The translations under genes and the position numbers were made by a program. A model generated the notes under the pieces. That model was not told where the DNA came from, ran no database searches, and saw only the letters and a list, made by a program, of their open reading frames with translations. DNA of 64,000 nucleotides from a virus (Duplodnaviria; Heunggongvirae; Uroviricota; Caudoviricetes), in IMG/VR virus record IMGVR_UViG_3300046820_001896. One strand, 5' to 3'. Positions 6,709 to 31,176 of this stretch are shown in pieces. Each line of letters begins with the position of its first letter. Within the stretch, counting starts at the first letter, position 1.

Positions 6709-7043
6709 TGGATCTACTAATTGGTATAGTAACAGGAGTTATATTAACTCTTATTGTGTTAAATATTCTTGCTAAAGCTGTTGATGAAATTAGAAATAAA
6801 CAACTCGACAAGAAACTAGAAGAAGGGTTACAAAAGCTTAGAGAAGTTGTAATTCCTAGTCGCATCGAAGTAGTCAATGGCATGTTGTTTTTGTACAACA
6901 AAGAAAATGGCGAATTCATAGCACAAGGTAAAAACTTCATTGAGTTAAACGATAATGCAAAAGCTCGTTATCCTGAGAAACTATTTAATGTACCTCAAAA
7001 CGAGATTGATGCAGTAACTAAAGGAATATCAATAAAGGTATGA
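6708..7043 (+). CDS. N-terminally membrane-anchored protein (111 aa)
   Basis: In-frame ATG at 6708 (TAATG overlap) gives MDLLIGIVTGVILTLIVLNIL. The longer ORF-track start at 6642 overlaps the upstream gene. Confidence 0.55.
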   Translation: MDLLIGIVTGVILTLIVLNILAKAVDEIRNKQLDKKLEEGLQKLREVVIPSRIEVVNGMLFLYNKENGEFIAQGKNFIELNDNAKARYPEKLFNVPQNEIDAVTKGISIKV

Positions 7044-7315
7044 TTAACGATAATAAATTTTATACGATAGTTGTAGCTATTACTATTTTACTTGGTGGAT
7101 GCATTGCATGGGGAATTATTTCAAGTAATAATCGTGCAGAAGCTGTTAAGTTGGCTTTAGAAAAAGGTCAAAATCCATTATATGTTAAGTGTTCAATGAA
7201 TACTACAACAACAGAAGAGTGCCAATCTATGATTATGGCTATGTCACTCTCAGGTCAATTTAAGGACGCCTCAGCTCCTATTTCAGTCTCACCAGCAAGT
7301 TACCCTAAAAAGTAA
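7040..7315 (+). CDS. membrane-anchored protein (91 aa)
   Basis: ATGA overlap with the upstream gene. N-terminal TM segment FYTIVVAITILLGGCIAWGII. Confidence 0.55.
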   Translation: MINDNKFYTIVVAITILLGGCIAWGIISSNNRAEAVKLALEKGQNPLYVKCSMNTTTTEECQSMIMAMSLSGQFKDASAPISVSPASYPKK

Positions 7316-7346: not shown

Positions 7347-7673
7347 ATGCCAGGAATTGCTAGAGTTGGTGTTGACAAAGCCGGTGGAGTAGTCACCGGT
7401 AATTTAGCTCCCACAGTTTTCGTAAATGGTTCACCTATCGTAGTGATAGGTGCAACTATTGCAGGTCACGGACTTGCTCCTCACGCTTCTCCAACTATGG
7501 TTGAAGGAGCTGTTGACGTGTTTGCGAATGGTATAGGTATATGTAGAACTGGCGATTTGGCATCGTGCGGTCATGCTATTTCAGGTTCAGATAATGTATT
7601 AACAGGATTTTACCCAAATCCGGGACCTACACGATTTGGTATTTCGAAATTTGGTGTGGAGAAACAAGGATAA
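7347..7673 (+). CDS. PAAR-domain spike-tip protein
   Basis: Gly/Val-rich beta-rich 108-aa protein with GHGLAPHASP and TGDLASCGHAISG, typical of PAAR proteins (T4 gp5.4 class). Confidence 0.7.
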   Translation: MPGIARVGVDKAGGVVTGNLAPTVFVNGSPIVVIGATIAGHGLAPHASPTMVEGAVDVFANGIGICRTGDLASCGHAISGSDNVLTGFYPNPGPTRFGISKFGVEKQG

Positions 7674-21936: not shown

Positions 21937-22518
21937 ATGAATGTATATATTTTGTTAGATCGTAGTGGCTCAATGCAAACCATGTGGGGAGAAGCATTAG
22001 GTTCAATCAATGGTTATGTTAAGAAGTTAAACAAAAAAGATAAAGTGCACTTAGCCGTATTTGATAGCGTATCGCATGATGTAGTACGTGATTGCACAGT
22101 TGAGAAGTGGAAAGATATCAACACTGAAGAAGTATCTCCAAGAGGTGGTACACCATTATATGACTCATGCGGCAAAGTCATGTCATTGGCTGAAGAAGCA
22201 GACGCACGTAAAACATTAATGGTTGTAATGACTGATGGATTTGAGAACGCATCACATGAGTATACACAAGCAGCGATCAAAGCTAAAGTAGAATCATGGA
22301 CTGATAAGAAATGGGAAGTAGTATTCCTTGGTGCAAACTTTGATGCAGTTGAATCCGTATCGAACTCTATCGGTGTAGTTGGTTCTAAGACATTGAACTA
22401 TGGTGTCGGTAATTTTGCTCGCGGTATGGATACATTGATGGCATCTACTATGGCATACGCTAGTGGTGCATCAATCAACTTTAGCGACGCAGATAAGCAA
22501 GCAGCAGCAGGAAAATAA
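21937..22518 (+). CDS. von Willebrand factor A (vWA) domain protein
   Basis: ILLDRSGSM (DxSxS MIDAS motif) ... GGTPLYDS ... VVMTDGFEN. Confidence 0.75.
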   Translation: MNVYILLDRSGSMQTMWGEALGSINGYVKKLNKKDKVHLAVFDSVSHDVVRDCTVEKWKDINTEEVSPRGGTPLYDSCGKVMSLAEEADARKTLMVVMTDGFENASHEYTQAAIKAKVESWTDKKWEVVFLGANFDAVESVSNSIGVVGSKTLNYGVGNFARGMDTLMASTMAYASGASINFSDADKQAAAGK

Positions 22519-27851: not shown

Positions 27852-28004
27852 ATGTTGACAGACAAAGAGATATGCGACCTCAGGGATGAGATCCAGATCA
27901 TGATTATTCAGAAGGTCCAGGAGAGACTCGATCCGAACTTGTCTATTGATGAATGTGTCGAGCAGACAGACGAGATCATGGACTTTATTAAGGAGATGAT
28001 GTGA
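27852..28004 (+). CDS. hypothetical small acidic protein (50 aa)
   Basis: Hand translation MLTDKEICDLRDEIQIMIIQKVQERLDPNLSIDECVEQTDEIMDFIKEMM. Confidence 0.4.
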   Translation: MLTDKEICDLRDEIQIMIIQKVQERLDPNLSIDECVEQTDEIMDFIKEMM

Positions 28005-28195
28005 AGCTGTTCAGGGAGACGACTAAGGATTGGCAGCAGCCTACCCCCAATCATGCCTATGTACTGTCAGATGACAAACAGTGGATGTATGGGTATGTCA
28101 AGGCTGGTACACGGGACCTGATCACCCTCTCCAAGAGGATTAGGTTTGATGCCAGGTACAGGACATTTGTAGCATTAAAGAAAGGACAAATATGA
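28001..28195 (+). CDS. hypothetical protein (64 aa, GTG start)
   Basis: GTGA-type overlap with the upstream mini-ORF. Confidence 0.45.
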   Translation: MKLFRETTKDWQQPTPNHAYVLSDDKQWMYGYVKAGTRDLITLSKRIRFDARYRTFVALKKGQI

Positions 28196-28329
28196 AACTA
28201 TTCAATGCAGTGACAGACATGATCCAGGCACGGATGTACATGTGTCTATTAGGAGTAATCATTGTTGTGGTAGGGATGCTCTCCCCACAATTAGCGCTTA
28301 AGTGTGTACAGACAGGAGTCAACAGATGA
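28192..28329 (+). CDS. small membrane protein (45 aa)
   Basis: ATGA overlap. MKLFNAVTDMIQARMYMCLLGVIIVVVGMLSPQLALKCVQTGVNR. Confidence 0.4.
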   Translation: MKLFNAVTDMIQARMYMCLLGVIIVVVGMLSPQLALKCVQTGVNR

Positions 28330-28520
28330 AGAAATACACAGCATCCACCAGATGGACACAACCGTATCATTACATCACCGGATGGAGAAAACGTCAGACC
28401 ATCAATAGAGTATTAGATGATCTACATACACAGCAACTAGACTTCATTGATGCAGCAGTAGATCAGTCAGATTTGTCAGATGCAAAGACAATCATTGCTC
28501 ATATCATGCAGAAACAATAG
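28326..28520 (+). CDS. hypothetical protein (64 aa)
   Basis: ATGA overlap at 28326 (in-frame Met of ORF 28302..28520). Confidence 0.45.
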   Translation: MKKYTASTRWTQPYHYITGWRKRQTINRVLDDLHTQQLDFIDAAVDQSDLSDAKTIIAHIMQKQ

Positions 28521-28530
28521 TATACAGGCA

Positions 28531-28563
28531 GGGGTACCTATAGGAAACTAAGGTACCCTTTTA
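28531..28563 (+). terminator. rho-independent terminator closing the early plus-strand block
   Basis: gggtacc (28532-28538) pairs with ggtaccc (28552-28558), followed by tttt. Confidence 0.6.
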
Positions 28564-28981
28564 TTAAGGTTCCATATTAATAGGAGACCATCTATAAGTT
28601 ACATACTCGGTTAAACCGTTGTCGTCCGTCACAAAGACAAAAAATAAAAAATTCCCCCCATGGGCAGAATATCCCCAGGATGTCAGTCCCTTCCAAGGAT
28701 GAACAGTAACCAATTATCTTTTTCCAGATAATTACAGATAATTCGCCATAGAAAAATTCCCCCCAGGGTTTATCCCTTCTCCTGGGGGTAATACTGTATC
28801 CAAGAGATTAATACTATACAACCTTCACATTGTTCCCCCCTTAGGTTGTTTGTTTCTCATGATACAGAATGTATCCCATTGTATACAGAATACTGCAGTT
28901 TGTATACTATAAGAAACAATATTGTATCATTAATGAGTCCCTAAGCTACTTAATGACTACTATATGATCCATTACAATACC
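28564..28981. repeat. repeat-rich non-coding region (C6 boxes x3, AGATAATT x3, ATACAGAAT x2)
   Basis: aaaaattcccccca at 28647-28660 and 28753-28766, a third C6 at 28835-28840, agataatt at 28712-28719 (inverted), 28727-28734 and 28737-28744, atacagaat at 28862-28870 and 28883-28891. No ORF. Confidence 0.7.
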
Positions 28982-29011
28982 ATGTACAACAATATATTTC
29001 TATGGTATAAT
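28982..29011 (+). promoter_or_regulatory. early-type promoter, copy 10
   Basis: tgtaca 28983-28988, N17, tggtataat ending at 29011. Confidence 0.6.
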
Positions 29012-29055
29012 ATAACCATCAGTAAAAAACCGGCGGGAACCCCTTAGCAGGATAT

Positions 29056-29103
29056 ATGTCTGATTTATTAGAGCGTCGTGGGGGTCCTCTGCCTAATTAT
29101 TAA
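29056..29103 (+). CDS. 15-codon upstream mini-ORF (MSDLLERRGGPLPNY) duplicating an internal segment of the next gene
   Basis: ATG at 29056. The stop TAA at 29101-29103 overlaps the RBS aaggag of the downstream gene. The 17 nt at 29068-29084 are identical to 29188-29204. Confidence 0.3.
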   Translation: MSDLLERRGGPLPNY

Positions 29104-29112
29104 GGAGTGCGC

Positions 29113-29343
29113 GTGGGATATATTACAGTAAACGTAGATGTGGATGTAGATCTATATGACATCGATACAGAAGACTTAAGGGAAGAGTTAGAGCGTCGTG
29201 GGGGCTCTCTGTCTGATAATGATTGGGAGGACGGCGATAATAAGAACTTGCTCAATATCATCTATGAATCTCGAAGATTAGGGAAAGACTATCAAAAAGA
29301 ACTAGATACCTTAATCTTTAGGGTATTAGGGAGAATCATATAA
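29113..29343 (+). CDS. hypothetical acidic protein (about 76 aa, GTG start)
   Basis: GTG at 29113 lies 5 nt after aaggag (the ORF track uses GTG at 29107). Confidence 0.5.
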   Translation: MGYITVNVDVDVDLYDIDTEDLREELERRGGSLSDNDWEDGDNKNLLNIIYESRRLGKDYQKELDTLIFRVLGRII

Positions 29344-29345
29344 TA

Positions 29346-29372
29346 AAAAAGGGACCTTTCGGTCCCTTTCTA
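29346..29372. terminator. bidirectional rho-independent terminator between convergent genes
   Basis: aaagggacc-tttc-ggtcccttt. An A/T run follows it on the minus strand. Confidence 0.8.
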
Positions 29373-29433: not shown

Positions 29434-31176
29434 TTAACGTGCGCCACGAGCCATTGCATCTTCTGGATCCCATTTAGTTGTACGTGCTGTGAGTGGAACA
29501 ATCTGAGGTTGGCTATACTTACCTCCCTCTGGACGTGCTCTATCAAAGCTTGGGCGGCGACCTTCTGCCATGGCTTGAACGTTTGCCTCAGCTCTTGATA
29601 CCTCAGCAACAGTAGTACCTTGAACGTTCTTACTTTGAACATTACTTAGTTCGGCGGCCGCAGGTGGTTGAGGAGCAGCTATCGGTGCTTTACCTACTGT
29701 AGCACCATTCACCGTCATTTGTCCACCCGCTTGTGCAAAGGCAGTCATTCTAACCCATGGGAATTCATTGATTGCCTTCATACTATCAGGACTAATCGCA
29801 GCAAACTTAGCCATCGCATCAGCAATTCTACTTAGACCTTCAGCAGTTTTTAATAAACCATCACCAGCTCTTGATAACTTTAAAATCTGATCAACAGGAG
29901 AATCTTGACCAATAGTTAATAGGTTAGAGATTAATGTGCCTAAACCTGCTGCTGCTTGACCTACGGCGAATGCAGCCATAGCAGCACCTAATGCACCAAG
30001 TGCACCAGCTGTAGTTAATAATCCTGTTCCATCTACCTTAGCAAGTCTTTCTAGACCAGCTGTAAATGTGTCCATTGTTCCTGCGACTACTTCAAATGCC
30101 TTCGCAGCAATATACAATGCACCAGCAACAGCGATCATGGCCGCAGCACCAAGTAATGCAACAGGTGCAGTTGCGCCTAATAATAACACTGCTGCTACTA
30201 ATCCGCCTAATACTACAACACCTTTAGCTATACCTTCCCAATCAAGAGCAGCAAACTTACCCATTGATTCGCTTAAGATAAACATCGCACCTGCAACAGC
30301 TAAGATTGTTAATGCGCCTGTGGCTCCGTTCATTAGTTTAGTAGCGATAGCCAATGCACCTAATACTACAATACCTTTAGCTACTTCTGACCAATCTAAT
30401 TTACTAAACTGTCTAAATGATTCTGCTAAGATAAGCATAGCACCACCGATTGCTAAGAGTGGTTTCCAACTATCTTTACCGTTTCCTTTACCAATTACAG
30501 CACCAGCAACAGTTAATGCACCAAGGGTTAATAATCCCTTAGACATATCTGACCATGAAAGTTTACTAAAATCACCAAATGCTTTTGCTAAGACCCAAAT
30601 TGCAGCAGCCATAGCAAGTAAACCTTTACCTGCATTGAACATGCCTTCGCCAAGATCTTTCATCATGGAGCCGAAGTTACCCTTCTTAGCATCCTTCTCT
30701 TTATCACCCTTCATAGCTTTTGCTTGAGGAGATTCTTTAGGATTTTGAAGCGCAGCAAGGATAGCTTCGTTATGCTTTGTCTGTTCAGCAGTTAATTCTT
30801 TTTGTTTTAGTCTATCTGCTTCAGCCGCTTCATGCATGGCTTTCATACTTTCTGCAGAGTCAACCATTTCATTGTTGATTTTCTGCAAAGCATAGTTAGA
30901 ACTAGTCGCTAAGTCTAATATTGCGTCTTGATGTTCGCGAATAAATCCAGCTAAAACAACAAGATTATCGTTAAAAGCTTTAGTATTATAAGCAGTAGCC
31001 CAAGTTTCAGATGCTATGGAAGCTATATTTGTTTTTATATCTTCAGCAATACTTTTTAAAGAAGCATTACGCTCATCATCTTTTGGCTGTGCCTCGATCA
31101 TGAGCGCATTGGTTTTTTGCACCTCTTGAATAAGAGCTGCAATATTTTCTTTAGACGTTACGTACTTGGTTGCCAT
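29434..31176 (-). CDS. tail tape-measure-like protein (580 aa)
   Basis: N-terminal coiled coil, then a Gly/Ala-rich hydrophobic core with three internal repeats (FGDFSKLSWSDMSKGLLTLGAL / FRQFSKLDWSEVAKGIVVLGAL / MGKFAALDWEGIAKGVVVLGGL). Lies downstream of a tube-fold gene. Confidence 0.65.
   Translation of the reverse strand: MATKYVTSKENIAALIQEVQKTNALMIEAQPKDDERNASLKSIAEDIKTNIASIASETWATAYNTKAFNDNLVVLAGFIREHQDAILDLATSSNYALQKINNEMVDSAESMKAMHEAAEADRLKQKELTAEQTKHNEAILAALQNPKESPQAKAMKGDKEKDAKKGNFGSMMKDLGEGMFNAGKGLLAMAAAIWVLAKAFGDFSKLSWSDMSKGLLTLGALTVAGAVIGKGNGKDSWKPLLAIGGAMLILAESFRQFSKLDWSEVAKGIVVLGALAIATKLMNGATGALTILAVAGAMFILSESMGKFAALDWEGIAKGVVVLGGLVAAVLLLGATAPVALLGAAAMIAVAGALYIAAKAFEVVAGTMDTFTAGLERLAKVDGTGLLTTAGALGALGAAMAAFAVGQAAAGLGTLISNLLTIGQDSPVDQILKLSRAGDGLLKTAEGLSRIADAMAKFAAISPDSMKAINEFPWVRMTAFAQAGGQMTVNGATVGKAPIAAPQPPAAAELSNVQSKNVQGTTVAEVSRAEANVQAMAEGRRPSFDRARPEGGKYSQPQIVPLTARTTKWDPEDAMARGAR

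Follow-up and report, generated by a model that had tools for sequence, protein, structure and literature searches.

A selectively conserved, single-copy non-coding element with a same-direction C-box array at the early/tail gene junction of uncultured T4-like phages, a candidate cis-acting DNA site

What is the function of the long, repeat-filled gap that separates the early genes from the tail genes in the genome of a distant, uncultured T4-like myovirus? In the 64,000-nt stretch of this genome that was analysed (the window), the gap, here called the hub, had been proposed in a first-pass annotation as a replication origin, a pac site, or an operator cluster, and as the largest ORF-free stretch. 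The latter claim holds at ORF cut-offs of 50, 60, and 75 aa, with the longest such stretch running from 28521 to 29099 or 29106. To its left lies a long plus-strand block of early genes, which includes those for a gp59-type helicase loader and a gp32-type single-strand binding protein and also encodes a 307-aa protein that falls in PHROG 1250, a family of unknown function, and has T4-group homologues annotated as nrdC.10. To its right, on the minus strand, are genes for tape-measure-like, holin-like, T4 gp26-type hub, and tail-tube-family proteins and for a gp2-type DNA end protector, and beyond this minus-strand tail block T4-type baseplate and tail genes follow on the plus strand. The plus-strand early genes stop at 28520 and the minus-strand tail and baseplate genes stop at 29434, so that the modules on either side, which had been described as divergent, are instead convergent. 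The late promoters of the phage are of the T4 type (TATAAATA), its protein matches to cultured phages fall below 60% identity, and neither near nor distant DNA searches gave a DNA match between the hub region and cultured phages. Elsewhere in the window, ARAGORN called at least 12 tRNA genes at the start, and two further tRNA-like sequences that it left uncalled (1044-1116 and 2901-2971) scored 41.0 and 29.9 bits with the Rfam tRNA model, giving 14 candidates in the cluster rather than 12. The ORF at 3011-3568 has a strong match to many HNH endonuclease families (best E 5.8e-22), and that at 21937-22518 has a weak, partial HNH-family match (E 2.3e-5), its best match being to a family of unknown function.

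The individual motifs of the hub are, apart from small slips in coordinates, as the first-pass annotation had described them. At the left edge there is indeed an intrinsic terminator of the upstream early operon on the plus strand (28530-28567, stem 28530-28560; GGGGUACCU...AGGUACCC, then UUUUAUU), with a folding energy of -17.9 kcal/mol, a z-score of -3.2, and a U-tract, and the early promoter at the right edge is a true member of the early promoter family. The three C6 runs reported for the hub are exactly the three present in the 64 kb with both strands counted (28654, 28759, and 28835, all on the plus strand). As a count, three is unremarkable, with 3.59 expected in the window by chance; it is their placement that is non-random, all three lying within 187 nt and on one strand. 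The shorter motif WTCCCC occurs four times in the hub against 0.08 expected per 535 nt, and AAAWTCCC twice against 0.01. The 14-mer AAAAATTCCCCCCA is present in two identical copies, at 28647-28660 and, one nucleotide away from the coordinate first given, at 28752-28765, and no further copy was found in the window even with 2 mismatches (0.35 expected). The inverted repeat CCCCCAGG (28760-28767) / CCTGGGGG (28781-28788) is real and folds at -17 kcal/mol, with a z-score of only -1.1 to -1.5. Also present as described are the triplet of AGATAATT at 28712 (inverted), 28726, and 28736 and the pair of ATACAGAAT, found only at 28862 and 28883, with GTATAC at 28881 and 28902.

To place these motifs in context, we drew relatives from IMG/VR by a protein-anchored scan, two DNA-pattern scans, and an exact-protein look-up, which together gave 17 distinct alignable copies of the element, all on uncultured phage contigs (designated by L numbers); box counts refer to 18 copies, with the truncated L098 included. 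The copies have a common layout in which a core is followed by an A-tract, a first C-box at a near-fixed distance from the core, and one to five further boxes. Next come the inverted repeat AATTATCT/AGATAATT in some copies, the block GAAAAATTCCCCCWGGGG-TAATACTGTATCC, and an ACAACCT/AGGTTGT dyad, and at the right end an AT-rich zone with one or several early promoters is followed by a common leader. Judged from sequence, this repeat grammar is clearer across the relatives than is visible from the window alone. The shortest version, in L005, consists of the core and three boxes in ~150 nt.

The core is a block of ~72 nt on the plus strand (28563-28637), and within it a 22-nt patch at 28581-28602, TAGGAGACCATCTATnnGnTAC, is invariant in 17 of 17 distinct copies. 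It also holds a small dyad, GGTTCC-N9-GGAGACC (28568-28589). From 28566 to 28632 the core is 100% identical to that of L001, and its identity to the other relatives is mostly 70-82%. In L118, of the same lineage as L001, core identity is unbroken for ~72 nt with both flanks 74-79% identical, and across 28002-28923 this lineage averages ~74% identity with indels. In the 307-aa gene, by comparison, the window and its relatives are 78-80% identical at the nucleotide level over the whole gene and 45-56% identical at 4-fold degenerate sites. Core identity of 70-100% against 45-56% at such sites points to purifying selection on the sequence itself, to which frequent exchange at the hub junction probably adds. 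A profile of the core finds a single copy in the window and at each close-clade locus and no copy in more distant relatives; bacterial genomes gave only three chance matches, inside coding genes. As the window holds no second core copy, a reading of the core as an inversion site was rejected. In L005, a 12-mer, GGGCAGAATATT, stands on both sides of the core (7403-7414 and 7510-7521), so that in this relative the core either has repeat units on its two flanks or arrived by insertion into the array.

Protein coding was rejected as the basis of this conservation, given the stop codons, a lack of third-position bias in substitutions, and indels in the box region that are not multiples of three; one minus-strand frame, although open in the window, is interrupted in L012 by a TGA. 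The hub contains no tRNA or tmRNA. Rfam gave no match at E≤1 in the window region and, in seven relatives, one chance-level match only (Histone3, 18 bits against a gathering score of 34). The idea of a G-quadruplex or i-motif was set aside, there being too few runs and overlong loops, and no sequence similarity to any described element was found. On these comparisons the hub is a real, single-copy, selectively conserved non-coding element.

Immediately behind the core, A-tracts at 28634-28651 (AAAAAATAAAAAA) lead into the first C-boxes, and the A-rich positions -2 to -5 are part of the box consensus. The first zone of boxes (28647-28719, plus strand) comprises box 1 at 28652-28664 (TTCCCCCCATGGG), box 2 at 28671-28679 (ATCCCCAGG), and a degenerate box 3 at 28691-28698 (TTCCAAGG), and can be read as three tandem units of ~19 nt each (28662-28681, 28682-28700, and 28701-28719); many relatives conserve a GCAGAAT between boxes 1 and 2. 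A lineage-specific 25-nt insertion, GGACTTCAGGCCTTCAGTCC, lies between the core and box 1 in L009 (3756-3790) and L105. Across the relatives the box consensus is AAAA[T/A]TC4-6[A/T]GG(G). Conservation of the boxes in related genomes had been suggested as a check on their significance, and strict boxes (an A-tract plus TCCCC(C)(C)WGG) do recur, every one of the 15 full-length copies having two to four and the three truncated ones one or two. When all TC4-7 boxes in the 18 copies are counted, 52 are on the plus strand and 2 on the minus strand, and their start-to-start spacings cluster at 19-25, 44-48, 64-68, and 86-87 nt with a best period of ~22 nt (Rayleigh R 0.62), figures that overstate independence in that the copies are phylogenetically related. 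Exact tandem copies of a box occur in L005 (18 nt apart) and in L016 (18 and 15 nt apart), the latter a relative in which the boxes are retained and the core is replaced by other sequence. A general promoter motif was rejected as an explanation, since the 64 kb contain no C-box outside the hub.

In every relative the element stands directly after the last plus-strand early gene with its boxes on the sense strand, an arrangement that favors a possibility not raised in the first-pass annotation, namely that the element acts in RNA, where the early operon ends. In the transcript, the C-boxes would then form a rut-like zone of termination at which Rho loads, or would be recognized by an RNA-binding protein, and the core would be a linear RNA recognition site, loosely like lambda nut plus tR1; the task of the element would be to stop early transcription from entering the converging tail genes antisense or to regulate read-through. 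A Rho-dependent terminator or lambda nutR-tR1 shares with the hub a sense strand that is rich in C beyond the final gene of an early operon and a conserved site ahead of it. The strand is C-rich here too: the plus-strand GC skew between 28600 and 28880 is -0.19 to -0.35, and the C/G ratio over the 200 nt after the core is 1.1-2.0 among the copies against a background median of 0.84. The top values belong to L012-type relatives, in which no intrinsic terminator precedes the element, so that it is probably transcribed there, and both small hairpins of the core contain G-U pairs on the plus strand. Outside the boxes, however, the C/G ratio is 1.04, which ascribes the C-richness to a discrete motif and not to the overall compositional bias typical of rut sites. 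G-runs able to pair follow each C-run, similarity to boxA or boxB is lacking, a strong intrinsic terminator precedes the element in the window and in L001-type copies, and no promoter and terminator pair delimits a small RNA. Nor do the folds speak for a structured RNA, in that RNAalifold predicts two small hairpins in the core with 0 compensatory pairs on either strand and the z-scores for 28566-28900 are only -2.3 and -2.0. We regard this RNA-level explanation as unlikely but nonetheless as a serious rival to the DNA-level one proposed below.

Farther along the array, the boxes are interspersed with inverted repeats. The first of these, AATTATCT and AGATAATT separated by 6 nt and followed by the third, direct AGATAATT (28712-28743), folds with a z-score of -3.3, and its sequence is identical in L003 and L111. 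It is followed on the plus strand by a segment (28752-28801) made up of the second copy of the 14-mer, the box CCCCCCAGGG, the CCCCCAGG/CCTGGGGG repeat, and a conserved TAATACTGTATCC, a block common to the window, L001, L009, L011, and L012. The third C6 box (28833-28845) is enclosed by the ACAACCT...AGGTTGT dyad (28818-28849, plus strand), whose arms are retained in L001, L009, and L105 and shifted in register in the L012 type, with no clean compensatory change seen among the relatives. In the hairpin loop of L001/L118 the sequence GCACGGGCC-CTTGG-GCACGGGCC is inserted inside this dyad, and the 9-mer GCACGGGCC recurs at the end of L111. Beyond the dyad, a second conserved island (28861-28918) carries both copies of ATACAGAAT, which is also present in L001, L003, and L016, together with two palindromes, TGTATACA and ACTGCAGT. 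Each strand of the island also has a weak promoter-like site, TGTATA-17-TATACT on the plus and TATACA-17-TACAAT on the minus strand (28906-28878). Between 28876 and 28918 this island is near-identical to the L118 lineage, with diverged surroundings.

The right-hand part of the hub is an AT-rich, easily melted segment (28878-29027, 27-31% G+C), which belongs to the least stable 0.3-0.4% of windows along the 64 kb, yet ranks only 5th to 8th and is not the minimum. Within it lies the early sigma-70-type promoter (28983-29011, plus strand), TGTACA-17-TATAAT with a TG extension. The family to which this promoter belongs has the consensus (C)ATGTACA-N17-GTGGTATAAT and eight plus-strand copies, found by two pattern searches, with -35 elements that start at positions including 1312, 4172, 13743, 14316, 22567, and 28983. 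A -10 box, GGTATAAT, is repeated in four or five tandem copies with a 10-nt period in L013 (6917-6970) and in the promoter zone of L001/L118, where the window has one promoter.

With a genuine early promoter and the weaker promoter-like site at 28879-28907 so placed, the hub could be a cluster of operators or an insulator, at which a phage or host regulator bound to boxes and palindromes controls the adjacent early promoter or promoters and the small downstream gene. Short palindromes are 2.4-fold enriched in the element, the palindromes and inverted repeats concerned including AATTATCT/AGATAATT, TGTATACA, ACTGCAGT, and CCCATGGG, and odd promoter arrangements in relatives, such as the tandem -10 boxes, would suit such control. 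The boxes, however, lie 140-330 nt upstream of the promoter, and the downstream gene varies among relatives while the element is constant. The array is also retained in L003, L087, and L016, where no plus-strand promoter or gene follows (in L016 with a different core), so that a purely local operator fits poorly; we consider control of this kind decidedly unlikely as the function of the hub.

Downstream of the promoter, the leader (40-49% G+C) and the gene it serves occupy 29057-29343 on the plus strand, with a 15-codon uORF (29057-29104), the motif CGTGGGGGTCCTCTGCCT..AAGGAG, and a 78-aa early ORF (29107-29343) for which no family match was found. A 33-nt direct repeat (29068-29100 and 29188-29220, 85% identical) indicates that the leader with its possible 15-codon uORF (MSDLLERRGGPLPNY) is a duplicate of sequence from within the 78-aa ORF downstream. 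At 29346-29371, a bidirectional terminator (-14.4 kcal/mol, z-score -4.2) ends both this small plus-strand unit and the converging minus-strand tail operon. In relatives, the leader motif TTTCGTGAGCTGGCTATCTGCCTGG..AAGGAG stands behind early promoters before unrelated genes (L011 ~2270-2360; L013 ~6970-7050; L009 ~4060-4110). In L011 and L013, promoter and leader run directly into a terminator with no ORF between, an arrangement that could be an empty cassette or could encode a ~70-nt small RNA.

Reuse of promoter and leader before unrelated genes is one of several features that recall the PeSL cassettes described in T4-like phages, in which a conserved intergenic sequence also lies between variable small early genes (PMC2839356, PMC4122927). 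The hub might accordingly be a recombination linker at a hyperplastic junction, its islands mediating or recording the exchange of early cassettes and having no dedicated function beyond their promoter and terminator parts. The flanks are mosaic: the small genes upstream and downstream differ between relatives (the adjacent 72-aa ORF has a protein identity among them of only 43-67%), and the core is common and even 100% identical between lineages. Independently assembled contigs moreover break right behind it. PeSLs, however, are promoter and stem-loop units repeated many times per genome, whereas the core and the C-box array occur once and are neither promoter nor terminator. Being single-copy, the hub is not a PeSL cassette, and only its right-hand promoter and leader resemble a reusable one. 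Moreover, a 22-nt patch that is invariant in 17 diverged copies needs selection on the sequence itself, and we think it quite unlikely that the hub is a linker and nothing more.

The breaks themselves lie just after the core or inside the box array in contigs from independent assemblies (L117/L004, L123, L098, L100, and L104). They suggest strain-level mosaicism at this point and mark it as a likely assembly break point, the ends being attributable to branching of the assembly graph where variable flanks adjoin a conserved island. The contig ends, several of them no more than 130 nt past the core, and the short repeated motifs with A-tracts, which resemble the pac sites of P1 or SPP1, would also be compatible with a pac site or a physical genome terminus. 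But branching already accounts for the contig ends, and the phage is T4-like, with a gp2 DNA end protector and T4-type baseplate genes; T4 packages circularly permuted DNA with no defined ends (PMC3016281). A pac site would be expected within or beside the gene for the small terminase, and no terminase gene was found among the window ORFs screened. For a T4-like phage of this gene content, a packaging site at the hub is highly improbable.

We propose that the hub is a cis-acting DNA site bound by a sequence-specific protein and, most plausibly though tentatively, an iteron-type replication origin. A protein encoded elsewhere in the phage, or by the host, would bind the invariant 22-bp core and the same-direction box array; the resulting nucleoprotein complex would sit beside the AT-rich, easily melted stretch that carries the early promoter, and complex and melted stretch together would serve as the origin, with early transcription helping to open or prime it. 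What favors an origin is the combination of a single-copy, asymmetric, invariant core beside same-direction repeats with a meltable flank that carries an early promoter, together with the position at a change of transcribed strand and the precedent of T4 oriE. The suggestion of iteron-like protein-binding sites in the first-pass annotation thus stands as regards the C-box repeats, with their 52:2 strand bias and ~22-nt spacing, the constrained core, and the AT-rich neighbor; binding itself, like the initiation of replication, is what we infer from them. Of the three functions first put forward, an origin is, on sequence alone, the tentative favorite, a pac site is unlikely, and a local operator is a poor fit.

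The hub resembles T4 oriE, an origin that requires an early promoter, in its evenly spaced cluster of direct repeats and in a promoter of the early and not the middle mode, as well as in lying near a transcribed-strand change by baseplate and tail genes and in repeats that are conserved in position among close relatives (PMC3016281). In oriE, however, the repeats recur every 24 nt within the coding sequence of gene 5, and the origin is annotated antisense, with repEA and repEB; the hub does not code for protein, combines C-rich boxes with a separate invariant core, and has no sequence in common with oriE, the repeats of which have an unproven role as iterons even in T4. Synteny of the hub with T4 oriC or oriE was rejected, as nrdC.10 and genes 2 and 3 of T4 are collinear and oriE lies within gene 5. 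The R-loop origins of T4, oriF and oriG, likewise place a promoter beside easily melted DNA. There, the promoter is a MotA-dependent middle promoter with the unwinding element downstream, whereas in the hub an early promoter has AT-rich DNA at its own position and upstream, with a leader downstream that is not AT-rich, so that the hub lacks the combination of MotA-type middle promoter and downstream A+T-rich element that defines this class.

Like lambda ori, R6K gamma, and pSC101, the hub combines repeats in the same direction, spaced by about two helical turns, with inverted repeats and a promoter to one side, and its adjacent AT-rich segment may correspond to the unwinding region of those origins. 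The array has the three or more direct repeats in one orientation, about two helical turns apart, by which iterons are recognized, a spacing that tandem duplication alone also gives. In contrast to those origins, the hub has no adjacent gene for a Rep or O-like initiator, its boxes are shorter, with ~9-17 conserved nt, and differ between relatives in number and spacing. DnaA boxes (TTATCCACA, ≤1 mismatch), the host-factor sites expected of such origins, have a density of 0.64 per kb across the elements and 0.33 per kb in background sequence, which was called not enriched, and the hub of the window has 0. Among the ORFs neighboring the element, none matched an initiator, Rep-like, or DNA-binding family; the 307-aa neighbor has only a weak match to AAA_22, and sequence searches were uninformative on this protein as a candidate initiator. 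The hub comes closest to T4 oriE or to the iteron origins of plasmids and lambda and cannot, on this analysis, be filed as a member of either.

Further observations weigh against the iteron-type origin. The ~22-nt spacing and the strand bias would also be expected from tandem duplication of an RNA motif, the element is probably transcribed in L012-type relatives, and the core is, as far as the sequences compared extend, confined to a narrow clade, with other sequence at this position in distant relatives. We know of no need for a conserved sequence in T4-type origins, and T4 replication can run on recombination alone. In two of the distant relatives, the non-coding DNA downstream of the homologue of the 307-aa gene contains other motifs with G5/C5 runs and repeated units of an A/T-run plus a GC-box (L020 7190-7330; L039 8720-8790), which may be functional analogues without sequence similarity.

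A more specific version of the origin would make the hub a new kind for T4-like phages, in which the core nucleates a specific protein and an rG:dC hybrid formed by a leftward transcript is the fixed primer of replication. Such a transcript would start in the AT-rich island, from the promoter-like TATACA-17-TACAAT on the minus strand, and, through G6 runs that match the C-boxes as their complement, it would stay paired with the DNA in a persistent rG:dC hybrid up to the U-runs that follow (GGGGGGAAUUUUU). ColE1 RNA II and mitochondrial CSB II are the systems with which a primer of this type can be compared. We consider this version very unlikely.

Few cis-acting sites of T4-like phages, origins included, are well defined, and the repeats of T4 oriE themselves have no proven role. 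Against this background, the hub offers a compact, single-copy, constrained element with a clear repeat grammar, common to a narrow clade of uncultured T4-like phages, that also marks a junction of gene-cassette exchange, where assemblies of these phages are prone to break. As such, it is a testable candidate for sequence-specific initiation of replication or for termination of the early operon in these phages.
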